A stretch of DNA of 64,000 nucleotides from Candidatus Sericytochromatia bacterium (GCA_026004035.1 BPII01000011.1:11416-75415), one strand, 5' to 3'. Positions 26,116 to 63,968 are shown, numbered from the stretch's first letter. Notes: a model not told the origin generated them from the sequence alone. Numbers and translations: made by a program.

Positions 26116-27132
26116 TTAATTTAAAGTTTTTACTTTTAAAATAGTTTCATCAATTTTATTTATTGCTTCTTTTAAAATATATCTTTCAATTGAAAGATGA
26201 TTAATTTTTTTTTGGATTTTTTCATCTTCTTTTTTTTCAAGTTCTTTAGAATAATTTTTTATACTTAATTCTACTTCTTCTAAATTCTTGGACAAATAAT
26301 TTCTCTTTTCTTTTATGCTATTTATAAATAAGTTTCTATCTAACTTTAAATGCAAATAATGTTCAAATGATAAAGGATCTGTATTTGTATATACTGGTTT
26401 ATTTACAAGTATAATTAATTCTTTAACTTTTTTATTGTAAGAATCAGCTAATCTTTTTAAAGTTAAATTTAATTCTGTTTTTTTTTCGCTATTTTCTTCT
26501 TTTTCAAAAATAGGATATATTTTGTTTATTTCATTTAATATTAAGTCAGCCTGTAATTTTTTATAAATTATTTCTTCTTGATGTGTGTTAATTAAATAAT
26601 GTTTTTTTATTTCTAATTCATCAAAAGATATGTTTTTAGAACTAAAAATTAAATCCATTACTAATTCAGTATCCAAAGGTTTTTTATTTTTATCATCATC
26701 TATATTTCTTTTTGTCATAACTTCACTTATAAGTTCTGGTGTTATTAAAACTAATCTGGAATAATTAAATATTTCTTCAGAATAAAAATCAAAATCTATA
26801 TCTTCAAAGTTTGCTTTTTTTGTATTTTCATTTATATCTTCTTTTATTTCTATCTTTTTCTGCTCTTTTTTTTCTTTTAAGTATTTTAGTTTTTGGTAAA
26901 TTTTATTAGCATTTATAGATTCATTAAGGTTAAACAAAGCTTCATAAGACTTAGATAACCATAAATAAATATCAGGTTCATCAGGATAATCTTTTGATAA
27001 TTCTTTTAATAAAATAACTGCTTCATTATAATTATGGTTATTATAAAGTTCAATTGCTTTATTTAATTTACTTTTATCAAAGGCTGATAATAATAAAAAT
27101 AAAAATGATAATAAAATAGTTTTTTTTATCAT
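26116..27132 (-). CDS. Secreted TPR plus coiled-coil protein (intact paralogue)
   Basis: Signal-like N-terminus, a TPR-like unit (YNEAVILLKELSKDYPDEPDIYLWLSKSYEALFNL), and the shared motif LVNKPVYTNTDPLSFEHY. Paralogous to 27129-28346. Confidence 0.7.
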   Translation of the reverse strand: MIKKTILLSFLFLLLSAFDKSKLNKAIELYNNHNYNEAVILLKELSKDYPDEPDIYLWLSKSYEALFNLNESINANKIYQKLKYLKEKKEQKKIEIKEDINENTKKANFEDIDFDFYSEEIFNYSRLVLITPELISEVMTKRNIDDDKNKKPLDTELVMDLIFSSKNISFDELEIKKHYLINTHQEEIIYKKLQADLILNEINKIYPIFEKEENSEKKTELNLTLKRLADSYNKKVKELIILVNKPVYTNTDPLSFEHYLHLKLDRNLFINSIKEKRNYLSKNLEEVELSIKNYSKELEKKEDEKIQKKINHLSIERYILKEAINKIDETILKVKTLN

Positions 27133-28346
27133 CTTTCTTCAATTACATCTAAAATTTTCTCTTTTTTAGGTAATTTAAAATCATCTATTTTATATTTATA
27201 CAAAGGATCTATTTTTTTTATTGTTTCATTAGCTTTATTATAGGAATCTATTAAAATATTTAATTCTATAGAATAGAATAGTAAATTTAGTTTATCTTTT
27301 GAAATTTTATTTTTTAATAAATTTATCTTATTTACTATTTCAAATTCATATCCTGATAATTCTTCAATAGGTTTTAACATAATTTTTTTATCTATTTTTG
27401 AAATTAAATTACTTAATTCTTTTTCTTGAGGAACAATTATACTTTTATAATTATTTACTTGTTTGCTAATATTTTCCAAAGCTATTTTAAATATGTCTTT
27501 TTTTTGCTCTAAAAATTGTATATATTCTTGAGGTTCCTTATTAGAAATTTGGTAATATTCGAAGCTAAGAGGATCAGAATTAGTTAGAACAGGTTTATTA
27601 ATTAACTCTAAAAGTTTATTTTCACATTCCTTATATTCTTTTATAAAATCATTTATTTTTTTTTCTAGTAACAATTTTTTGTCGTTATCATTTTCCACTG
27701 AAAAGTTGTATTTTAAAGTTTCAATTTCTAACTCAATTAATGATGCTTTACTTTTATAAAAAAGTATAGATTCTTGTTGATTTGCTATACCATAATATAC
27801 TTTAATTTCAAAATTTTTATTAAATCTAGAAAGAACATCACTGTCTAATGGAACACTATCAAATAAGTCTTTAATTTCTTTAAATTCAAAATATTTTTCG
27901 TTATCATCTTTTCTTAAAGAAATAGCTTTTTCTATAAAATTATCATCTATTGGATTAATTTTAAATAAATCATTTTCTTGATTTGCTTTGTTGCTTCTTC
28001 TTCAATTCTTTCTTAAATTATTATTTTTTTTATTTTTTAGTTGCTTCGATTTCAATTTTTGAAATATTTCATTTTCTTCCATTGATCTTTGTAAATCAAA
28101 TGTTGCTTCATAAGCTTTTGAAAGCCACTGATGTGGTGTAGGATTATCAGGTTCTTCTTGAGCTGCTTTATTTAGTAATTCTATTGCTTTTTTGTAATCT
28201 CCTTGATTATACATCTTTATTCCTTCTTCAAGGTTGGTATTTGCAAAAGAGTAAGAAGGATAAAATGATACTATTAAAGTAACTAATATAATTTTTATTT
28301 TATTTTTCTTCATTGGTTTCATTTGGATTACTTCCACCTTCATCAA
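27129..28346 (-). pseudogene. Tandem paralogue of 26116-27132, split by a single in-frame TGA
   Basis: Track ORFs 28002-28346 and 27129-27698 lie in the same frame. The 101 codons between them are stop-free, and the only interruption is the TGA at 28002-28004. The downstream piece starts at a GTG with no obvious RBS. Confidence 0.7.
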
Positions 28347-29718
28347 GTATATAAGGGGTTACCATTAATATTAGCTCTACTTCTGATTCTGACCAAGAAT
28401 TAGCACCAAATAGTGGATCCTAAAAATGGTATGTCACCAAGTATTGGTAATTTTATTTGATCCAGTTGATGTATTTTTTCTTTTTAATCCACCTAGTACT
28501 ATTGACTCACCAGATTTAACTTTCATTGTTGTTTTCAGTTGTCTATCTAAGTGTTTCTGGAACAGGATTACCATTAACAATAACATCTTTACCTCTGCTA
28601 CTTATAGATGGGTTTAATTCTAAAGTAATAAATCCTTCTTCAGTATCTATCATAAGGGTTTAACTTTATGACTATCACCTATTTGTATATTTTAATATGT
28701 TTGAGTTGCTCCTGTTGCTGTTTGTGTTGTTTGTATTATAGGGACGTTTTCAGTTGCGGAAAATTCAGCTTCTTTACCACTTTGAGTAGCTATTCTAGGA
28801 TTAGAAAGAATTTTAGCTTTACTATCAGATATTAAAGCATTTAATTCAGCATTAAATTAGCTGTAAAATTTCTTAATGCTTGAAAATCTAATCTTATACC
28901 TGACGTAGTAACAGGAGGAGCACCTGCATTTGTTAATGCTGATGATTGAATAAGAGACAGTTCCAGCCACCAGCACCTTGTTGCTAAGTGCTTGAGCTGA
29001 ATTATTAAATGCCGCACCAAATTGTTTTTGACCATAGCCATAGCTCATACCTAAGTGTTTTAGCAGCTTGTTCAGTTAACTTCTACTAATTTTATTTCTA
29101 TCATAACTTGAGGTATTTTTTGATCTACTATAGATAATACAGACTCTAAAAAATCCATTTGAACTGGTCTTCCAATTACTGATAATATATTATTTTCATC
29201 AGTTGGTATCATTTCAGGTTTTGTTTTACCAGTAGTATAAAATCTTGTCATTCTTTTTAATAGCTTCTGATGGTTTCATATTTTTAATCTTATAATTTTT
29301 CATTATGGAGTCATCTATACCATTTCTTTTAAGTTCTTCTTCATCTGATATAAATATTGTTCTATTTATTTTTCTTGCTGTTAAACCTTTCATTTGTAAA
29401 ACTATACTTAAAGCTTCGCTTAATTTTACATTACTAAGTTCTATTCTATTAATAGAAGATTCTGTTACTTCTTTTTTACCACCTATTACTAAACTATAGC
29501 CTGTTTGATTCACTAAAGCTTTTAATATATCACTTACAATTGCATCACTGACTTTTAAATTAACATTAGGGTCTTTTTCTAACTTTATTAATGGTGTAAC
29601 TGATGTTTTTGTATTATTTACACTTATAGTTTGACAATCTTTCAGCTGCTAAAGTATTTGTAGATATTCCTAAGACTAAACTTAAAGACAAAATTAATTT
29701 TAATGATTTATTCATCAT
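28300..29718 (-). pseudogene. pilQ: Type IV pilus secretin PilQ, multiply frameshifted
   Basis: ATG at 29718 with RBS AAGGAG and the signal peptide MMNKSLKLILSLSLVLG. Fragments in different frames include the N-domain (track ORF 29226-29513), LNALISDSKAKILSNPRIATQSGKEAEF, KLPILGDIPFLG and the C-terminal ELILMVTPYIL. Confidence 0.8.
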
Positions 29719-29734
29719 ATTCAACTCCTTAGAT

Positions 29735-30727
29735 TTATTCTTCTTCAATTAATAATCTTGCCTTATATATTCCATCTGTTATTAAGAACAGATTTTCTAT
29801 TAAAATCTATAGAAACTATTCTTAATCTATCTCCATTATTATTTATTTCATCACCAACTCCTAGTAATTTACTTTCATCATTTACTGATAAAATAGCTAG
29901 TGGTTTAGTTCCTGTAACTATACCTGTTAATTTTAGATCCTTCTGATAAGTCGTTTTGCTTCTGAGACTAATATTTCTTCTTCTGTATTTTTATTATCAA
30001 CAATAATTTTTTTACCCGCATCTGTTTTTGGTATTTGTACAGGAGGTTTAACTTTGCTTTTATTTGTAGTTAATATTTTTATTATTTATATTTTTAGTAC
30101 AATAGATTATTATTTTTAATTTTAACATCATTTTTACTCGCATCAATTTTTGCTTGTTTCAGTAATGCTTCTCTTTCTTTTTCCATTTTCATAGCTAGTA
30201 AAGCTTTCTTTTCTTCTATTAATTCTTGAGGTACTTCTGGTAAGTTTATCTATTTTTGGTGGTTTCAGAGATATAAAAGGATCTACTCTACCACTATTTA
30301 ATCTTGCTTCTAATATTATCTCTTTAAAATCTTTCTGTTTTATTATTTCATCTTTAGGTAACTTCTACTATTTGTTCTATAGTTGTACTTTGAATTGGTT
30401 CAGGTGTTTGTAAAGGTTCAGGTGTTTTTATAACTTTAGGCGTTTCAATTGGTTCAGCTGTTTTATGATATTTCGATTTTTGGTAGTTTCTTTGACTATT
30501 TTTTCAGTTGGTTTTGGTATGGGTTTTATACTTTCTTTAATAGATATCTGATTGCTTTTATTTGATTTGTAGGTTGCGTTGTTATTGTAGGCGCTAACTG
30601 GTTCAGATGTTTGAATTGGATTATATACAATCTCTTCAGGTTCTTCTATGTAGTAAGAAAGTACATGTAATGATACTGCTGAAGTTATCAGTGCTGGTAA
30701 TATTATAGCATGTTTATTTATATTCAC
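29735..30727 (-). pseudogene. PilP-like pilus assembly protein with extended N-terminal region, frameshifted
   Basis: The N-terminal TM ORF is 30428-30727. The C-terminal piece LKLTGIVTGTKPLAILSVNDESKLLGVGDEI...RLRIVSIDFN resembles the PilP beta-domain. The pieces are in different frames. Confidence 0.45.
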
Positions 30728-30730
30728 TAC

Positions 30731-31400
30731 TTAATTTCCTCCTTCAGGTAAAAGGTAAGCTCTTAAATTAAGAGTTACTTTTAAAGCACTAAATTTATAA
30801 TCATTATCAGTTATAGGTGATAATGATATAGAAGCGGGATTTATAGCTCTTTGGTATTTTTCTAAATCTTTAAATAAACTTATTATATTAGGATAACTTG
30901 ATTCTAATGAAAGGTTTAAAGGAGTTTGACTTAAATTTAAATCAGCAGGTACACCACTTGCTAAATTTGAGGTAAATTAACTCTTTGTATAGAACCTGGG
31001 ACTAAATCAAATAAATCAGATTTATTATTTAATTCAACAAATTTTCCATATCATATATTAATGATGGAAGATTTTCTTTTGTAGGTATTCTTTCTTGTAG
31101 TTTTGCTATTTCTTTATTTAAATCTTCTATTGCTTTTTCTGTTTCATCTATTTTTCTATATCTTTTAGTTGTAGGGTTATAACCTAATTTTGTTTCTAAT
31201 GCTTGATTATCAGAAGATAGTTTTTCATTTTCTTCTAATAAAGTTTGATATTCTGTATATATTGGATATAATAAGTAATATCCTCCACCTAATAAAATTA
31301 GTAGAGATAAAACTCCACCAGCTATTAACTTATAAGATTCAGGTATATTTTTAAAAGAATCTGTATTTATTGTTATACCAAATACTTTTGTTTCTGCCAT
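30731..31400 (-). pseudogene. pilO: Type IV pilus assembly protein PilO, two frameshifts
   Basis: A 123-aa N-terminal ORF (TM plus coiled coil) is followed by VELNNKSDLFDLVPGSIQRVNLPQ and then NLASGVPADLNLSQTPLNLSLESSYPNIISLFKDLEKYQRAINPASISL..., each in a different frame. Confidence 0.6.
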
Positions 31401-31436
31401 TTTTCACCTAATTCATATTAATTTCAAATCTTAGAT

Positions 31437-32097
31437 TAAACTTTAGTTACAGATGAAAATTCTCTATCAACAGCTAAATTATTTTTTAATTTTGAAGAAT
31501 CTACTTTTTCTAAATCTCTTATTTTATATCACTTGTCTTTTTTGTATAATCTAAAACTACATTACTAAATCTTGGAGAATCTTGTATATTTGCAAGAAAT
31601 ATAGCTACTGTTTTATGATCAAAAGTTTCTCCAGACATAGTAATTTTATTTTCATTTATATCTATTTTATCAACCCAAAATTAGATGGTATTCTATCTCT
31701 GATTTCTTCAAGTAATTCTGACCATTTAAAATTACTTCCACTAGCCCATGCTAATATATCTCTTTTTTTCTCTACATTAGTTTTACAGCAAGTTTTTCTG
31801 TAAGAAGTTTATCTTGTTGCTCTAACTCAGCTTTTCTTCTTTCTAATTCTTGTTTTCTTTCAGCTTCTTCATCTCTTAAACTAGTTAAAACTAATATAAC
31901 CTACTGATAAAGCTCATTAAAGATATAAATAAAAATAAAACTGATAATATAATTCCTTTGCTTACTTTAGTTCCAGATATAGTTTTTTCTATTTCTTCTC
32001 TTACTTGATAACCAAGAAGATTTATATTTATTGATACAGTTAAATTTGTTCCTGTAGCAGATTTACTACCATCTTCTTTTTTTTCTAAATCTATCAC
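31437..32097 (-). pseudogene. pilN: Type IV pilus assembly protein PilN, frameshifted
   Basis: The N-terminal ININLLGYQVREE plus a TM helix (68-aa ORF). Later fragments (WSELLEEIRDRIPSNFWVDKIDINENKITMSGETFDHKTVAIFLANIQDSPRFSNVVL) are in other frames. Confidence 0.55.
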
Positions 32098-32140
32098 AGC
32101 TAAAAATTTTTACTCCTTAATCATTATATTTATTCTAACA

Positions 32141-32905
32141 TTATAAATTTAATTTTTCTAAATATAGTTCAAATAAATAATTATTGCTAAAAAAACTTAT
32201 TAAACTTCCAAGAGCTAAAAATGGTCCAAAAGGAAAATAATCACTTTTTTTTCTATATATAGTAAAGAGCTATTCCAAATAAAGAACCCAATAAAAAACC
32301 TATAAATAAAGTACCAAATAAATAGTTAATTCCAAGCCAAGCACCTATCATTGTTGTTAATGTTACATCTCCCAAACCCATTCCTTCTTTTTTTAAAAAA
32401 AATAAACTCCCCTTAGCAATTAAAAACAATAATTAAATATCCTAAAACTGCTCCTAAAATAGAATCAATAATTTTATTATCTAAAAAATTATAAATTATA
32501 CCTATTGCAATACCTGGATAAGTTAAGCTATCTAATATTAACATATAATCTATATCTATCCATGATATTACGATAATAAGACATATAAAATATGTAATAA
32601 AAATCCATTTCCAACTTATACCAAAAGTAAAGAAAGCAATACATAATAATAGAGCTGTTATAAATTCATTTAAAGGATATCTTATACTTATTGTCTTCTT
32701 TACAATATCTACATTTACCCCCTAAAATAATCCAACTTAAAATTGGTATATTATCATAAAACTTTATATCATTATTACATTTAGGACATTTTGAATTTGG
32801 ATATATTATAGATTTTTCTCTTGGAAGTCTATATATAACAACATTTAAAAAACTTCCAAGCATAGAACCAAAAATAAAAATTAATATAATATTTAAAATA
32901 TTCAT
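32141..32905 (-). pseudogene. pilD: Prepilin peptidase (A24 family) PilD, frameshifted
   Basis: The N-terminal Zn-finger region (CPKCNNDIKFYDNIPILSWIILGGKCRYC) is in the 79-aa ORF. The catalytic-region fragment KKEGMGLGDVTLTTMIGAWLG and the C-terminal PFGPFLALGSL are in other frames. Confidence 0.75.
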
Positions 32906-32989
32906 TGAAACCTATTTTGTATTTTATAACCTTAAATAAATTATAATGCTGTGATTATATACACATAAAATATTACTTTTAATTAAGTG

Positions 32990-33530
32990 TTAATTTACCC
33001 CTCTTGATGATAGTAATACAGGAAAAGTTTTAATAAAAATTTTTAAATCAAGACAAAATGATAAATTATTTATATATTCTATATCATATTTTAATTTAGT
33101 ATCAATACTTAAATCATCTCTTCCATGTATTTGTGCCCAACCTGTAAGTCCTGGTTTTACTTTAAAAACATTTTTTTTGTTCTTCTGTATATGTTTTTAC
33201 TATTGAAGGAACTTCTGGTCTAGGTCCTATTAAACTCATTTCACCTTTTAAAATATTTATTAATTGAGGTAATTCATCTATACTAGTTCTTCTTAATATT
33301 TTACCTACTTTTGTTATTCTAGGATCATTATCTTGAGTAAAACTGGTCCAATTTTATCAGCATTTACAACCATTGTTCTAAATTTATAAATTAAAAACTC
33401 CTTTTGATTTTTACCAACTCTTATTTGTTTAAAAAATATTGGTCCATTATCTGTAATTTTATTAGTATAGATACTATTATAAATAAAGGTATTAATAATA
33501 TTAATGAAAATAAAGAAAAAAAAAATCTAA
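32990..33530 (-). pseudogene. Undecaprenyl-phosphate sugar phosphotransferase (bacterial sugar transferase family), multiply frameshifted
   Basis: The fragments [65 protein letters not shown] and KPGLTGWAQIHGRDD lie in three frames. Confidence 0.75.
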
Positions 33531-33566
33531 TAATGGTTTAATTTTTATATACATTAAAATATAATT

Positions 33567-34885
33567 TTATATACCTATACAAAAATACTCAAAACCTAAT
33601 TGTTTCATTGTGTCTAATTCATACTGATTTCTACCATCAAATATAACAGGATTTTTTCAATAATAATTTCATCTTATTAAAATTAGGTCTTCTAAATTGT
33701 GGCCATTCTGTAACAAGTACAAGAAAGTCAGCATTTTCTAAACATTTGTACATATCTTGATTAAATTCAATTCTTAAATTGTCTTTAAAATACAATTTAG
33801 TTTTTTCAATAGCTTCTGGATCAAAAGCTGATATATAGGCATTTAAAACTTAAAAGTTTTTCTATTATTTTTAAAGAAGGAGCTTCTCTTATATCATCAG
33901 TATAAGGTTTATATGAAAGTCCCCAAATTGCAACTTTCATATTTTCAATACTATTGAATCTTTTCAAGATTTTATTTATTAGTATTAATTTTTGTTTATC
34001 ATTAACTTCCTTAGTAGCTTTAATAATTTTAGAACTATAGCCTTTTTCTTCAGCTATATAGTCAAGAATTTTTATATCTTTTGGAAAACAAGAACCACCA
34101 AAGCCAATACCTGGAAATAAAAATTTATGACCTATTCTACTATCATAAGACATTCCTTTTCTAACATTATTAATATTTGCTCCTAAAATCTCACATATAT
34201 TTGCTATTTCGTTTATAAAAGAAATTTTCATTGCTAAAAAAGCATTAGAAGCATACTTTGTCATCTCAGCTGATTTTATATCCATTTCAAGTATTGGATT
34301 ATCATTTCTAACAAATGGCAAGTATAATTCTTTCAGTACTTTTAAAGATTTCTGTGTTTCAAAACCTATTACTATTCTATCAGGTTTCATAAAATCTTCA
34401 ATTGCTGATCCTTCTTTAAGAAATTCAGGATTACTTAAAACATCAAATTCTAATTTTAAATTTCTTTTTTCTAAAGAATCTTTTATAATATTTTTTATAG
34501 TTTCACAAGTCCCTACTGGTGCTGTAGATTTATTAACAATAATTTTATAATCATTTATATTTTCTCCAATATCTTTAGCTACTTTTAAAAGATTTTTTAA
34601 ATTTGGTTTTCCTTCTTCATTAGAAGGAGTATCTACTGTTATAAAAACAATTGAAGAATTATCTAAAGCATATTTAATATTTGTAGAAAAAACTAATCTC
34701 TTTTCTTTTATATTTTTTTTTATTAATTCTTCAAGTCCTTTTTCATATATTACTGATTGACCTTTTGATAATTTATTTATTTTATCTTCATTAATATCTA
34801 CACAAATAACATTATTGCCCATTTCGGCAAAACATGTGCCTGTAACTAATCCAACATAACCAGTACCTATTATACAAAGATTCAT
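33567..34885 (-). pseudogene. ugd: UDP-glucose 6-dehydrogenase, C-terminal third displaced by two +1 frameshifts
   Basis: The 354-aa ORF has IIGTGYVGLVTG and GFGGSCFPKD. The continuation is NAYISAFDPEAIEKTKLYF...VLVTEWPQFR, then NPVIFDGRNQYELDTMKQLGFEYFCIGI* in shifted frames. The second shift is in a T6 run at 33652-33657 (A6 in the mRNA sense). Confidence 0.8.
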
Positions 34886-55174: not shown

Positions 55175-57404
55175 ATGAAGATACTAATATTTTCAATATA
55201 TAATCAACCTGAACAATTAATAAGTTCTTTTAAAGTATATGAAAGTAATAAAAATGAAGATGTGTATTTTTTAAATTGTTCAAATTCTTTAAAATTTTGT
55301 GATATTAATTCTGATAATTATTTTCAAAAATGTTTTGAATGTATTGCTGACAAATTTTTTTTGTTTAGATTATTTAATATTGAAGAAAAAAAATTAATTG
55401 ATATTGATAGTTATGAAAAAATAAATGTTGATATTCCTTTATTTGATAGTATAGACGATTTAAAATCATTTACTTATAATAATATAAATTATGGTTTATA
55501 TGCTTATAAATCTGTTGTAAATATTACAAAGAAAGAAAAATTTAATATTAAATTTGTAAGATACCTTATAAAAAATATAATAAATGAAGCAATAAATTTT
55601 TATAATAAAATTTCAAATATTATTGATAATATAAAACCTGATAAATTTTATATATATAAGAATAATAGTATAATTTACTTACCGATTATAGAACTTGCTT
55701 TAATCAAAAATATTGAAACAATAACTTTTTATGTAGATAATAATGTTTTATATTTTTACAATGCAAAAACTAATGAACAATTAAATTACAATATTTTTTT
55801 AGAAAAAATTGATAATGAATATCTTATTAATGGCCAAAAAATTAGTAAAATTATTTATGCTAGAACTAAAAATGAAATTTTAAAGGCTATCGTTAAGTAT
55901 AATCATGACTTGTTTTCTAATAACGTTGAAACTTTTAAATTTTTTAGAGATTTAGAAAAACAAAATTTTTGGACAGAAGAAGAATCTAATATTATCAAAA
56001 ATAAAGTTTTAGAAATATATAATAAATTAGATAAAAAGAGCAAAGAAGCAAAAGAAAATGTAAAAATAAGTGCATGTATGATAGTTAAAAATGAAGAGAA
56101 AAATTTAGAAAGATGTCTTAATAGTATAAAAAATATTGTAGATGAAATAATAATATTAGATACAGGTTCAACAGATAATACCATTAATATAGCAAAGAAA
56201 TATACTTCAAAAATTTTTGAATATAAATGGAAAGACGATTTTTCTGATGCAAGAAATAAAAGTATTTCTTATGCAAAAAATGATTGGATACTAATAATAG
56301 ATGCTGACGAAGAGCTAACAGAAAATACTCAAAAAAATCTTTTAATAACAATATATGATGAACCATTATTTAAAGAAGAACTTGTATTTTGGTTTAAATG
56401 TTTTAATAAATATCCAAATGAACAAGAAAGCACTTTTTACTTTAAACACTTTTTATTCAATAAAAAACATGGATTTGTATTTGAAGGAAAAGTTCATGAA
56501 TATTTGGTTAATCCTAATCAAAAAGAGAAAGATAAAGTTTTTAAAAAAACATCTACATCAATTCACAGTAAATCATTATTGTAATACTGAAAAAAACAAA
56601 GAAAAATCTAAATATTATTTACAAATTCTAGAAGATCAGTTAAATTTTGAAAAAACTTTAAAAGGTAAAATATCTATATTAAGTCATTTAGCTAATGAAT
56701 ATCAAAAAGTAGGAGATTCTGATAAAGCATTTAAAACTCTTTTAGAATGTCATAATTTGTTCCAAAAAGATAAAGAATTAAAATCTACATTAACATATAT
56801 TTCCAATTTAATAAGTATATCAGCAAATTTAATATTTAATCAGCTTAATTTTGAAAAAGCAAGAAAATATGTTGATGAAGCTCTTGAGTTAATAGAAGAT
56901 CATAACTTTACAGATGCTTTTTATTTAAAAGCTCTTATAGAACATAATACAAATAATTATCAAAAAGCTATTGATTTATACATTAAACTAATAAATCTTT
57001 TTAGAAGTAGTAATTTTGATAAAGAAAGTTCTTATGGCTTAAGTTCAAAAGGTAAAACATTATATCCTTTTACAGTAATACAACTTTATAAGCTTTATAT
57101 GACTCTTAATAAAGAAAGCTTAGCTTTAAATGTTTTACTAGGTAATGAGAATAATTACTATTTAGTTAATATGTATGTAATAAAACATTTTCTTTTAAAG
57201 AGAGATTTAAAAAATTCTGCAAATGCTTATTTTAGAAACATATTAATAAGTCAAAAAAATAAAGATTTATTGTACAAATTATTAAGTGAAAATAAATATA
57301 AGCAAGCTATTTATCAAATGATTAATGAATTGCTAAACACTAAAGAAGTATTTTCTGATGATGATAAAGAAGAATTACAAAAATTACTACAAAGTATTAT
57401 TTAA
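55175..57404 (+). CDS. Unknown N-domain / GT2 glycosyltransferase / TPR fusion, +1 frameshift at an A7 run
   Basis: The GT2 core is ISACMIVKNEEKNLERCLNSI...ILDTGSTDNT...IDADEEL. ORF 55175-56584 and ORF 56355-57404 join as ...KDKVFKKHLHQFTVNHYCNTEKNKEKSKYYLQILE if the A7 run at 56543-56549 is read as A6. The C-terminus is TPR-like. Confidence 0.75.
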
Positions 57405-61009: not shown

Positions 61010-61110
61010 GTGTTATTTAATTTTAGTATAATTTTAGTTTAAGACAAGCAAGAGAAATATAGTAAATACTATATTTTTATTAGAATAGCTAAATTATTAG
61101 GAGTAAATAA

Positions 61111-62148
61111 GTGACAAGTGTAGGCTCTGCTGGTTATAATCCTTATCAATATCAAAACTACAATAATCAATATAATCAAGGTTATGCTACAACAGGTGTC
61201 AATCCATATGGGACTACTGATGGTTACATGGCTTCTCCTTATGCAACAGGTTATATGCAAGGAGCAAACGCTATTGCTGGTCCTGCTATGGGCATAAGCT
61301 CTATGGTAACAGGAATAAGTAGCATGACAAATAGTATAGGTGGTATATTAGGTACTATATGTAATTTAGTTGCTAGTATAATAAATTCAGTTATAGATTT
61401 AGTAGTTGGTCTTGTAAAAGGAGTTTTAGGTTTATTTGGAATAGGTAAAGATAAAGGAAACCAAAATATGCCTATGAATATGCAAATGAATCCAAATATG
61501 CAAATGAATAATATGACAATGCCAAATCATAATTATCAGGGTATTAGAACACCAGCAGGATCTAATGTTCCACCACCGCCACCAGGAACAGATATAAATG
61601 TAGCATATAATATAGTTGCAGGAGATTTAGCAAATGTAAGAGATCCTAATCAAGGAATACAAATTGTAGATATTCATGCATTGAAAGCTAAAGATTATAG
61701 AGAAAAAGCTGAACAATTTGCAAAAGAAGCTGAAAAAGAAGCAAGAGAAGCAGCTTATGCAGCTGAAGAATTACAAAGGAGAATAGCACAAAGAACAGGA
61801 GATATAAACACTTTAGTTGCAAAAATACAACAACATAAATCAAAAGCTATGGAATTACTTAAAACTTCTCAAGAATACACAAAAGCTGTATATGATGAAG
61901 CTTTATATGCTCAAGCTGCAAATGATATATTAAGTCAAAGATTTGGTCCAGCTTTTGGAACAACAGGAGCTCAAAAAGTTTTTGATGCTTGGAAAAATTG
62001 GATTGGTGGATATGAAGAAAGAAAGTTCCTAATATTTAAAGATAAAGTTAAACCAGCACCTGAAGTATTTATGAATGCTTTAAATGCTGTAAATGCTAAT
62101 ATAGGAAGAGCTACACAAGTATTACAAAGTTTAGCACCTATGAGATAA
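61111..62148 (+). CDS. Hypothetical protein: N/Q/Y-rich N-terminus, Gly/Ser/Ile-rich hydrophobic segment, M/N/P-rich tract, PPPPPP, coiled-coil C-domain
   Basis: 345-aa ORF with a GTG start after AGGAG. The C-terminal motif AWKNWIGGY is shared with the next ORF. Confidence 0.7.
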   Translation: MTSVGSAGYNPYQYQNYNNQYNQGYATTGVNPYGTTDGYMASPYATGYMQGANAIAGPAMGISSMVTGISSMTNSIGGILGTICNLVASIINSVIDLVVGLVKGVLGLFGIGKDKGNQNMPMNMQMNPNMQMNNMTMPNHNYQGIRTPAGSNVPPPPPGTDINVAYNIVAGDLANVRDPNQGIQIVDIHALKAKDYREKAEQFAKEAEKEAREAAYAAEELQRRIAQRTGDINTLVAKIQQHKSKAMELLKTSQEYTKAVYDEALYAQAANDILSQRFGPAFGTTGAQKVFDAWKNWIGGYEERKFLIFKDKVKPAPEVFMNALNAVNANIGRATQVLQSLAPMR

Positions 62149-62157
62149 ATAAATATT

Positions 62158-63111
62158 ATGCAAGTAGGAAATTATCAGAATACAAATTATATAGTTCCAG
62201 TTCAGAGTAATGTTTCAAATCAACAATATAGTAATATTAGCGATCCTTTAGCATCTTATCCTTACGGCCAAGATGTTTTTTCAGGGCAATATGCTAGTTT
62301 TAAAACTATGTATTCAAATTTTGATACTTCTGTATCAAGATTTTCTCCTTTTTATGGAAAAATGGGAAATCAAAATAACAGTAGTTTTAATAATATTCCT
62401 AGTAATAATAACAATCAAGTAATTACACAAACAAATACAAATAATATTCCTGCAAATACAATGAGTAATAATCCTGTTATTAACACACAAAATACAATAC
62501 CTGCTGTTATTCCAAAAAAAATTACTCCTAAAGGACCGGCTTTGACTAATATTCAAGAGTTATTACAAAATGAAGTTAAACAAATAAGCACTCCTCAAAA
62601 AGCAATAGAAACTATTGCACAACATGCTATGATTTCAAGACAAGAAAGAACTATGGCTAATAATATATCATGGGGAGCAAGATTTTATGCTAAAAAAGCA
62701 CTAGAACTAGCTCAAGAACTCGAAAGAAATAGAGTTAATATGAATCAATCACAAATAAACTCTCTAATAATGAATATAGAAAATTTAAAAATAAAATCTA
62801 TTAGCTTACTTAATGAAGCTAAAAAAAGAGCAATAAATACTTATAATGAAGCATTAAAAGCTACACTATTATATAATCACTTTTTCACTGAAAATGGACA
62901 ATATACTACAATTTTAAATGATAATGATAGAAAATTTGTAGAAGATGAGTTGGATAAAACATGGAAACATTGGGAAGGTGGATTTCAAAAAGAATGGCAA
63001 GGTTCTATAGTTAAAGCTGATGAAGCACCTTTAGTTATTGATAAATCAGCTCAAGAGATTTATAATTATATTAATAGTATAGATAACATATTAGCTAAAC
63101 TTAAAAATTGA
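62158..63111 (+). CDS. Hypothetical protein, divergent paralogue of 61111-62148
   Basis: 317-aa ORF. N/Q/S-rich N-terminal half, coiled-coil C-terminal half with TWKHWEGGF. It starts 9 nt after the preceding stop. Confidence 0.7.
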   Translation: MQVGNYQNTNYIVPVQSNVSNQQYSNISDPLASYPYGQDVFSGQYASFKTMYSNFDTSVSRFSPFYGKMGNQNNSSFNNIPSNNNNQVITQTNTNNIPANTMSNNPVINTQNTIPAVIPKKITPKGPALTNIQELLQNEVKQISTPQKAIETIAQHAMISRQERTMANNISWGARFYAKKALELAQELERNRVNMNQSQINSLIMNIENLKIKSISLLNEAKKRAINTYNEALKATLLYNHFFTENGQYTTILNDNDRKFVEDELDKTWKHWEGGFQKEWQGSIVKADEAPLVIDKSAQEIYNYINSIDNILAKLKN

Positions 63112-63335
63112 TTTTTATAGAAATAAGTTTAATCAGAAAAAATAATACCAATCTATTAAATTAATATTGAATTAAAAGAAAATTATTACTCTTGGATAGA
63201 AGATCAATTAAAACCTACTAAACTTTACTCATCTATAATAACTTTTTCAAGATAATTTTTCTAAGTGTAATAAGTATTACTAATTTATCTGTTTTATCTA
63301 TGATAAAATAACTATATATAGCTTTTAGGTTTTGT

Positions 63336-63968
63336 ATGAGAACAAGAGAAGTCCTTCAAAGACTAAATTTAACAAAACATGAATTATTTAAATGCATAGA
63401 AGATTTTAGAATAAAAATAAAAAAGAATTCAAATAATGAACTAGATTTTTCAGAGGAAGATGTGGCTTTTATAGCTAATGTTATTAAATTAAAAGAAGAA
63501 GACCACGGTGTTAATACTATAAAAAATATGTTAGGTAATGTTCATGAACTTAATTTTTTATCTCAAAATGATAAATCTTATTATGATGATGTAAAAGATA
63601 CATTATTTAAAAAAATTCCAGATAATTATGTTTATGAACCTGAAATAAAAGTTTTTGACAGTAAATTAAGTTCTGATATAGAAAATAACATTTTAGATTT
63701 AAATTTTAAAATTGACAAAATTTATGAAATGTTAGAAAAATCTTTGGAATTAGTAGCTGAAAATTCAAAACTTAAAGAAAAAATAGAACATCAGGAAGAA
63801 AAAATAAAAATTTCAAAAGAATCTTTTCAAAAAGATATAGAAAACTTAAATAAAGAAATAGAAAGAAAATCTATTGAATGTAATCAATTAAATGATAGAA
63901 TAAAATATTTAGAAGAACAATTAAATAAGGATAAAGGTAAATCTAGTATTAAATTTTTTGGTAAATGA
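63336..63968 (+). CDS. MerR-like HTH plus coiled-coil protein
   Basis: The N-terminal TREVLQRLNLTKHELFKCIEDF...FSEEDVAFIANVIKLKEE fits a MerR-type HTH. The C-terminal half is a heptad-rich coiled coil. Confidence 0.55.
   Translation: MRTREVLQRLNLTKHELFKCIEDFRIKIKKNSNNELDFSEEDVAFIANVIKLKEEDHGVNTIKNMLGNVHELNFLSQNDKSYYDDVKDTLFKKIPDNYVYEPEIKVFDSKLSSDIENNILDLNFKIDKIYEMLEKSLELVAENSKLKEKIEHQEEKIKISKESFQKDIENLNKEIERKSIECNQLNDRIKYLEEQLNKDKGKSSIKFFGK

Follow-up and report, generated by a model that had tools for sequence, protein, structure and literature searches.

A paired paralogous gene module of Candidatus Sericytochromatia, possibly encoding a membrane-tethered scaffold

What kind of system is encoded by two adjacent paralogous genes that match no described protein family? 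The question is raised by a locus in a 64,000-nucleotide stretch of DNA from Candidatus Sericytochromatia bacterium (GCA_026004035.1, BPII01000011.1:11416-75415), hereafter the window, whose GC content is about 24%. The Sericytochromatia are an uncultured, non-photosynthetic sister lineage of the cyanobacteria, and to our knowledge their cell biology is essentially unknown. The products of the two genes, ORF1 and ORF2 (hereafter A and B), are identical to the hypothetical proteins KatS3mg068_1670 and KatS3mg068_1671 of a Candidatus Sericytochromatia metagenome-assembled genome (MAG), and a Logan contig of the same organism (L001) shows 99.97% identity to the window over 10.9 kb. An original prediction, made from the sequence alone, had described the locus as a pair of prion-like paralogues with a shared coiled-coil tail, followed by a MerR-like coiled-coil gene (ORF3). 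When the sequence was re-read, the features were found where they had been placed, and the interpretation as a whole is partly supported. The present analysis indicates that A and B probably form a two-gene module that is vertically inherited and confined to the class Sericytochromatia. We tentatively propose that the module is a membrane-tethered scaffold with a housekeeping structural role.

Conservation and pairing of the two genes

The claimed paralogy of A and B proved to be far beyond chance. BLASTP gave E=5e-12 with 24% identity over 156 aa, and comparison of the two family alignments by hhalign gave a probability of 99.1% (E=6e-19, 183 columns). The tails are colinear as described: AWKNWIGGY (residues 293-301 of A) aligns with TWKHWEGGF (residues 268-276 of B). 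The heads also share a motif, P-Y-x-x-D-G-Y..S-P-Y in A and Y-P-Y-G-x-D-V-F in B, and the extreme N-termini are alike (M-x-x-[VI]-x..[QN]-P). These facts suggest that the duplication spanned the whole protein.

Relatives were collected by a word-indexed search over 5.8 billion proteins, in which A gathered 48 clusters and B 39. When a combined C-domain profile was run exhaustively with HMMER against 1.84 billion representatives, 24 matches emerged, of which about 20 are real. All organism-named matches were from Sericytochromatia, Blackallbacteria or unclassified Cyanobacteriota. Scans of A and B against Pfam, NCBIfam, PHROGs and PADLOC returned sub-threshold coiled-coil noise only, a sequence-profile search of the PDB showed no family match for A, B or ORF3, and in the literature on Sericytochromatia we found nothing about the A or B proteins. 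The suspicion that no described family has this architecture was borne out, since no match in these databases or in Foldseek explains A or B, and sensitive profile and structure searches with the shared C-domain gave no confident homology to a known family. The module thus appears to be without a known relative at the level of the protein family and fold combination, and the kind of system that it forms is what we infer below.

Twenty-seven related loci were fetched, among which 20 distinct loci carry a canonical A. In all 20, B lies 3' of A on the same strand at a gap of 2-14 nt, and the paired paralogues are thus kept together in relatives. The single apparent overlap of A and B was an artefact of the choice of ORF start. 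In a distant contig with a GC content of 62%, the pair is 1 nt apart. The spacing of 9 nt reported for the window was reproduced, with B starting at 62158 after the stop of A at 62148.

The ends of gene A are conserved as well. In 17 of the 20 loci, which span 35-100% protein identity, the start codon of A is GTG and is preceded by a strong Shine-Dalgarno sequence. The last sense codon of A is AGG or AGA (Arg) in 18 of the 20. In most loci, the terminal AGG together with the stop codon creates a Shine-Dalgarno-like sequence, GAGG or AAGG, at 5-12 nt before the ATG of B. This sequence sits in the terminal codons of A, and the A-B junction is, as judged from sequence, a likely signature of translational coupling. 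The conserved GTG start and the terminal Arg codon that doubles as the Shine-Dalgarno sequence of B suggest that the A:B expression ratio may be tuned.

The ratio of nonsynonymous to synonymous substitution rates (dN/dS) was estimated by the Nei-Gojobori method from close, unsaturated pairs. It was about 0.04 for both A and B, which rules out that they are artefactual ORFs. A and B are therefore real genes that are strongly constrained along most of their length. By segment, dN/dS was 0.01-0.02 for the two C-domains; in A, it was 0.05 for the hydrophobic segment and 0-0.05 for the head, and the linkers had higher values. The linker of A, with dN/dS up to 0.47 and 35% identity, is the least conserved segment. 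The hydrophobic segment is conserved as much as the C-domain (54% versus 57% identity). Pairwise identities of A and of B across loci correlate with r=0.98 (190 locus pairs), which points to co-inheritance of the two genes, not to their contact.

The genes that flank A-B vary from lineage to lineage. All-against-all clustering of the neighbours in 22 loci revealed no broadly recurring third gene. A Ser/Thr kinase and an ORF of about 150 aa each recur in only two lineage groups, DUF2227 recurs in one lineage group, and EF-hand proteins occur in two loci. In the sampled neighbourhoods, no secretion, immunity or mobile-element gene recurs near A-B. The pair would accordingly seem to be an autonomous module.

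Two observations on these neighbourhoods are recorded here. The EF-hand proteins, encoded next to B at L005:10112-11497 (- strand) and L008:8073-9341 (+ strand), are about 420-460 aa long, with an N-terminal EF-hand and a long helical region; they come from two different lineages and were not clustered by BLAST. In a distant lineage (L027:5715-7674; Logan SRR27850975, 66% GC), the place of A and B is taken by the A-like genes P0103 and P0099 in tandem, both encoding a Gly-rich hydrophobic segment. On their 3' side lie genes for a Gly/Ala-rich probable membrane protein of 468 aa and for a Cys-rich protein resembling FdhE_C.

Architecture of the two proteins

Both proteins share one layout: a disordered aromatic-rich head, a low-complexity linker of variable length and a homologous C-domain. 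A alone has a hydrophobic helix between head and linker, and B lacks a hydrophobic stretch, as originally reported. In the window, A begins with a Y/N/Q/G head and a hydrophobic stretch of about 57 aa; the NMPMNMQMNPNMQMNNMTMP tract and a run of prolines come next, and the C-terminal part is helical (Table 1). The proline run was present as predicted; it comprises five prolines (PPPPP), not six.

The heads had been called prion-like on account of their Asn and Gln content. The head of A in the window contains 13% Asn and 9% Gln (together 22%). In orthologous A heads, Asn amounts to 2-7% and is replaced by Pro, Gly and Gln. Over the orthologous heads of A and B, the sum of Asn and Gln ranges from 12 to 26%; what is conserved instead is Tyr, kept at 10-23%, and a D-x-[YF] motif. 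In the head and linker of B, Asn and Gln together make up about 30% in the window versus 12-16% in the Blackallbacteria-like clade. The richest 60-aa spans contain 28% Asn plus Gln in A, where the span falls in the linker, and 37% in B. The large ORFs of the window contain 8.5% Asn. The prion-like description could not be upheld, because the N/Q bias is not kept in orthologues, and the Asn richness is most readily seen as compositional drift in an AT-rich genome.

What the heads have kept is disorder, low charge and an abundance of aromatic residues, together with short conserved motifs. In A, the motif is D-x-Y..S-P-Y-x-T-G-Y-x-Q-G; Y48 and G51 are invariant, and Y14, Y33, D37, Y39 and Y44 are near-invariant in the alignment. 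In B, the aromatic motif YPYG-x-D-V-F..F-K..Y-x-N-F-D is conserved, together with an invariant S-P-F (residues 63-65). Head and linker of B together measure 92-194 aa across the family.

The hydrophobic segment is 50-57 aa long in all canonical A proteins and contains at most 3 charged residues. Its Gly+Ser+Ala+Thr fraction is 0.36-0.56, and its charged fraction is 0.00-0.08. The Kyte-Doolittle maximum over 19 residues is 1.5-2.1 in every canonical member, so that the usual threshold of 1.6 is mostly reached. The family-mean hydrophobicity has a periodicity that peaks at exactly 100° over 51 columns, with a power of 1.44 versus at most 0.35 at beta-strand angles. These facts suggest that the segment is one long amphipathic alpha-helix of about 50 residues. 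Its hydrophobic face carries Ile, Leu, Val and Phe at heptad-like spacing, and its polar face carries Gly, Ser, Thr and Asn with almost no charge. The original prediction had described the stretch as glycine-zipper-like. The canonical GxxxGxxxG motif is absent from 27 of 28 family members, and GxxxG is missing from the whole P0036-P0046 clade; the segment is better described as a heptad-like amphipathic helix.

The relation of this helix to the membrane was assessed from its energetics and its flanks. A crude, position-independent Hessa sum over the best 19-mers came to +2 to +5 kcal/mol and was higher in distant members (+5 to +7 kcal/mol). The segment is therefore marginal as a classical transmembrane span. 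We infer that it may be an interfacial helix, either ALPS-like (amphipathic lipid packing sensor) or self-associating. A basic GKK or GKDK follows directly on its C-terminal side, and inspection of the sequences of A and B showed no signal peptide in either. Since both facts agree with it, a cytoplasmic location of the C-domains is favoured.

The structures of both proteins were modelled with AlphaFold2 (AF2) on the family alignments. In the model of A, the predicted local distance difference test score (pLDDT) is above 90 for residues from about 145 to 345, and residues 1-141 are of low confidence. The C-domain of A contains a short helix, helices 179-227, 232-278 and 280-295, a hairpin at 301-313 and a helix at 316-340. 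Two of the helices are thus about 48 residues long, and the second of these (232-278) carries on to residue 295. The model of B, with pLDDT mostly 85-95, shows the same order of elements: helices 146-194, 197-243 and 255-273, a hairpin at 276-287 and a helix at 290-316. The two C-domains, each of about 190 aa, are thus predicted with high confidence to have the same fold, a long three-helix bundle closed by a beta-hairpin. The tail that had been described as a shared coiled coil is, in these models, a compact bundle instead.

The conserved motifs can be located in this fold. The C-domain of A holds TKAVYDEALYAQ and W294-x-x-W297-x-x-G300 (nt 61987-62013), and that of B holds WGARYYA, NEAKKxAIxTYNEALKA and W269-x-x-W272-x-G-G-F (nt 62959-62985). 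In both models, the W-x-x-W-x-G-G motif lies at the end of the fourth helix, directly before the hairpin. The hairpin reads YEERKFLIFKDKV in A and FQKEWQGSIVKAD in B, and it is polar or charged in the one family as in the other.

Foldseek searches with the model of A against the PDB and BFVD, and with the model of B against the PDB, returned no match with E below 1e-3. Generic three-helix bundles (designed bundles, Smac/DIABLO and MIC60) ranked best, with TM-scores up to 0.6-0.75 normalised to the short targets. These matches had E-values of 0.03-0.1 and 6-12% identity and covered the bundle part only. The likeness is a resemblance of fold class, not homology.

Table 1. Coordinates of the features of the A-B locus, numbered from the first nucleotide of the window
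Feature	Position	Strand	Basis
Shine-Dalgarno sequence AGGAG, 7 nt 5' of the GTG start of gene A	61099-61103	+	read from sequence
Gene A (ORF1, 345 aa, KatS3mg068_1670), pair member with amphipathic helix	61111-62148	+	ORF; GTG start
Head of A (aa 1-55), disordered, Tyr-rich, almost uncharged	61111-61275	+	alignment, composition, pLDDT <50
Predicted amphipathic hydrophobic helix of A (aa 56-112)	61276-61446	+	Kyte-Doolittle, periodicity
Linker of A (aa 113-152), low-complexity, M/N/P/Q-rich in the window; ends directly before the conserved PPPPPGTD	61447-61566	+	pLDDT <50
C-domain of A (aa 153-345), predicted three-helix bundle and beta-hairpin	61567-62145	+	AF2 model, invariant columns
A-B junction: terminal Arg codon AGA, stop codon, 9-nt spacer	62143-62157	+	junction sequences compared
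Gene B (ORF2, 317 aa, KatS3mg068_1671), paralogue without hydrophobic helix	62158-63111	+	ORF
Head and linker of B (aa 1-118), disordered, linker of variable length	62158-62511	+	alignments; pLDDT <55
C-domain of B (aa 119-317), predicted fold as C-domain of A	62512-63108	+	AF2, hhalign
ORF3 (210 aa), MerR-type helix-turn-helix and long coiled coil; neighbour judged outside the A-B module	63336-63968	+	Pfam MerR_1

The MerR-like neighbour and other features of the window

The next gene on the same strand, ORF3, starts 225 nt 3' of B and combines a MerR-type helix-turn-helix (HTH) with a long coiled coil, as originally described. Its match to Pfam MerR_1 (PF13411) over residues 1-66 is borderline (E=4.4e-5, 24.0 bits versus a cut-off of 21.6); MerR_1 was also recorded for its relative P0111 and for a homologue in L009. 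The C-terminal 140 aa match generic coiled-coil families only, and a match to NCBIfam MakE is confined to the coiled coil.

ORF3 overlaps the start of the downstream RNase_T gene, which encodes a DnaQ-like exonuclease, by 4 nt; the arrangement runs on past the end of the window (L001:10257-11710). This overlap is kept in L025, where ORF3 shows 78% identity and the upstream gene is not B. With an ORF3-family profile, no homologue was found within 10 kb of A-B in any other sampled lineage. The proposal that the MerR-like gene is a third component was thus not supported: ORF3 is tied to RNase_T and is absent near A-B elsewhere. ORF3 is treated here as a neighbour, not as part of the module.

One further adjacency should be mentioned. 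The MAG binchicken_co248_139 carries a canonical A-B pair on one contig (L012) and a divergent A paralogue, P0047, on another. P0047 (381 aa; CAYRDV010000019.1, L009:6001-7739; also in L015) has an N-terminal extension and carries a charged segment where canonical A has the amphipathic helix; no B lies next to it. Its gene is convergent to that of a full-length ORF3 homologue, and a DUF7527 gene and a Ser/Thr kinase gene follow. This ORF3 homologue shows 29% identity (BLASTP E=2e-13 to 2e-18, phmmer E about 4e-16). Two adjacencies of ORF3 and the A family among about 20 loci are suggestive at most.

The pairing of ORF3 with RNase_T, that is, of a DNA-binding coiled-coil protein with an exonuclease, is itself unusual. 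We take the architecture of ORF3 to be reminiscent of the RacA-type chromosome anchors of Bacillus subtilis, since both would have an N-terminal MerR_1 HTH followed by a coiled coil of about 90 aa in a protein of about 200 aa. ORF3 differs in its coupling to a DnaQ-like gene, and its NCBIfam and PDB sequence searches gave no match to RacA or to any MerR structure.

Three other regions of the window deserve a record. At 55175-57404 (+ strand), a gene for a GT2 glycosyltransferase/TPR protein is broken up into the ORFs 55175-56584 and 56355-57404, which overlap, and L001 has a single 686-aa gene in their place. The only differences between the two assemblies there are homopolymer indels at 56543 (A7 versus A6) and 57206 (a missing T), and the split probably stems from a frameshift that arose during sequencing or assembly of one of them. 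At 28300-33800 (- strand), 5.5 kb without an ORF of at least 200 aa nevertheless contain fragments of type IV pilus genes: a 79-aa ORF (32666-32905) that matches the N-terminal domain of prepilin peptidase A24 with E=4.5e-29, a 95-aa ORF (29226-29513) with a secretin STN domain, and a PilO-like ORF with a transmembrane segment and coiled coil (31029-31400). This cluster looks frameshifted, pseudogenised or mis-assembled. Finally, three consecutive ORFs on the - strand (26116-27132, 27129-27698 and 28002-28346) resemble one another in part. The first and third share the N-terminal TPR-like motif YN..Y..A..LLK....P..P....WLSKSYEA.F.L, and the first and second share the block L..L.NKPV.TN.DPLSFE.Y. 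They are probably local paralogues or fragments of one gene.

Possible functions and comparison with known systems

We return to the question of what A and B do. The reading that we put forward tentatively is that A-B is a membrane-tethered scaffold with a housekeeping structural role in Sericytochromatia. The helix of A would lie in the membrane on its cytoplasmic face, or self-associate there; it would serve as an ALPS-type interfacial anchor, not as a transmembrane span of the classical sort. Through their paralogous C-domains, A and B would pair into a heterodimer or a higher oligomer, and the complex would display two kinds of heads with aromatic motifs on flexible tethers. Its role may be housekeeping of a lineage-specific kind, in the organisation of the envelope or the cell, for example in division, shape or membrane architecture. 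A housekeeping structural role is suggested by the vertical inheritance, the single copy per locus, the very low dN/dS and the lack of secretion or immunity genes among the neighbours. In a bolder and unlikely form of this proposal, A-B would be a signature cell-organising machine of the class: a membrane-bound heteromeric scaffold whose helix senses or shapes curvature and whose Tyr-rich heads build up a multivalent and possibly condensate-like layer to which envelope or division factors are recruited. If this were true, it would represent a solution to cytoskeletal or membrane architecture without a homologue in cyanobacteria or other bacteria.

Several facts weigh against the scaffold proposal. 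No homology of A or B found in the searches above points to a specific function. The Kyte-Doolittle maxima of 1.5-2.1 would also fit a true transmembrane helix or hairpin, which would imply another topology and perhaps another compartment for the head. The segment could instead drive the formation of soluble or membrane-embedded oligomers, and its best sequence match in the PDB is the heptad repeat of coronavirus S2 (E=0.0096). The correlation between the identities of A and B reflects shared phylogeny, and physical contact is not implied by it. It is worth noting that the membrane-inserting or self-assembling system of the original prediction stands in one part: either role is plausible for the hydrophobic segment, given the properties of the helix. 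The three-gene system of that prediction is not supported.

The properties of the helix are shared by two other explanations. A-B might be a binary secreted or released membrane-damaging system, comparable to the two-component alpha-helical pore-forming toxins of the ClyA/XaxAB/YaxAB kind. The bundles would then be the soluble form. The helix of A is amphipathic and marginally hydrophobic, and its polar face is uncharged; partnered by B, it would insert into the membrane of a target. As in the ClyA family, the bundles are elongated and helical with a beta-hairpin, and multi-component members of that family likewise arise from adjacent paralogues. ClyA was indeed among the Foldseek matches of B (E=0.059, 19% identity), but this match is not significant (TM-score 0.23, rmsd 17 Å), and when the C-domain profile was compared with E. 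coli ClyA (HlyE) by hhalign, the probability was 4%. The bundles of A and B have three helices, not five, and their hairpins are polar and not hydrophobic tongues. The ClyA lead was rejected on the hhalign probability and the polar hairpins. Neither protein has a signal peptide, no secretion context or recurring immunity or mobile-element gene was found nearby, and co-divergence within one class with dN/dS of 0.04 is more typical of core genes than of toxins. We consider such a toxin improbable. Alternatively, A-B might coat or organise a hydrophobic intracellular surface such as a storage granule, a lipid body or an internal membrane, in principle like phasins or perilipins, with the long uncharged helix bound to a monolayer or to packing defects. 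The helix would fit this role. In 6 loci of the Blackallbacteria-like clade, the second gene downstream is of the PHB_acc_N (PhaR) type, and a GH57 glycogen-branching-type gene lies directly upstream of A in the window, but each of these neighbours is limited to one lineage. No phasin or perilipin family in Pfam or NCBIfam matched, and B and the aromatic heads would be left without a role. A granule coat therefore seems to us quite improbable.

Two further explanations were considered. In the original prediction, two prion-like proteins would act together with ORF3 as a MerR-like coiled-coil regulator or partner. ORF3 does lie on the same strand at 225 nt, and a full-length homologue is convergent to the helix-less A paralogue in one other genome. 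Against this, ORF3 keeps its 4-nt overlap with RNase_T where B is absent, the other sampled lineages have no ORF3 homologue within 10 kb of A-B, and the N/Q richness is not conserved. A three-gene system is thus very improbable. A and B might also be WXG substrates of a system like type VII secretion and form an Esx-like heterodimer. The genes are paired, both proteins are helical paralogues as in the WXG100/Esx family, and W297-I-G of A and W272-E-G of B are conserved in both families. Pfam WXG100 (PF06013), however, matched neither A nor B even at E<=1, the proteins (345 and 317 aa) are three times too long, and their fold is different. In the AF2 models, W-x-x-W-x-G ends the fourth helix, outside the hairpin turn, whereas the long helices turn at residues 227-232 (A) and 194-197 (B). 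No FtsK/EssC-type ATPase was found by Pfam annotation or clustering in about 20 neighbourhoods. On profile, size and the position of the motif in the fold, the WXG100 idea was rejected, and we regard it as extremely unlikely.

The scaffold proposal thus remains the one that we favour, tentatively. Lineage-specific orphan families are common and A-B has no direct bearing on a long-standing question, which bounds the importance of the finding. The module could nevertheless serve as a phylogenetic marker of the class Sericytochromatia. Since the genes are always paired, under strong purifying selection, restricted to the class and unlike known families, they would be a good candidate for a lineage-defining structural function. 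The architecture is unusual in itself, in that an aromatic disordered head, an uncharged amphipathic helix of 50 residues and a flexible tether are joined to a new helical-bundle domain.

This architecture can be compared with two kinds of known systems. The first are the membrane-tethered helical-bundle scaffolds of bacterial cell organisation, of the ZipA, EzrA and DivIVA/SepF type. The searches above showed no sequence or structural homology of A or B with them; the match of ORF2 to NCBIfam EzrA is very weak (E=0.0011, 17.5 bits versus a cut-off of 556). The anchors also differ, an uncharged amphipathic helix of about 50 aa in A versus an N-terminal transmembrane segment or a short membrane-targeting sequence in these scaffolds. 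The paralogue pair and the aromatic heads have no counterpart there, and no division genes are linked to A-B. What is shared is the layout, that is, a membrane-binding element, a flexible, variable linker rich in Pro and Gln, and a helical bundle, and the likeness is one of analogy only. The helix of A may in turn be compared with the ALPS helices of ArfGAP1 and GMAP-210. ALPS motifs are eukaryotic and unrelated in sequence to the helix of A, whose hydrophobic face is wider and more aliphatic (mean Eisenberg hydrophobicity about 0.55, Kyte-Doolittle up to 2.1) and nearly transmembrane-like. The predicted helix of A is likewise long, with alpha periodicity over 51 columns, a polar face of Ser, Thr and Gly (and Asn) and very few charges. 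As for an ALPS helix, the prediction for the segment on its own is one of disorder or low confidence.

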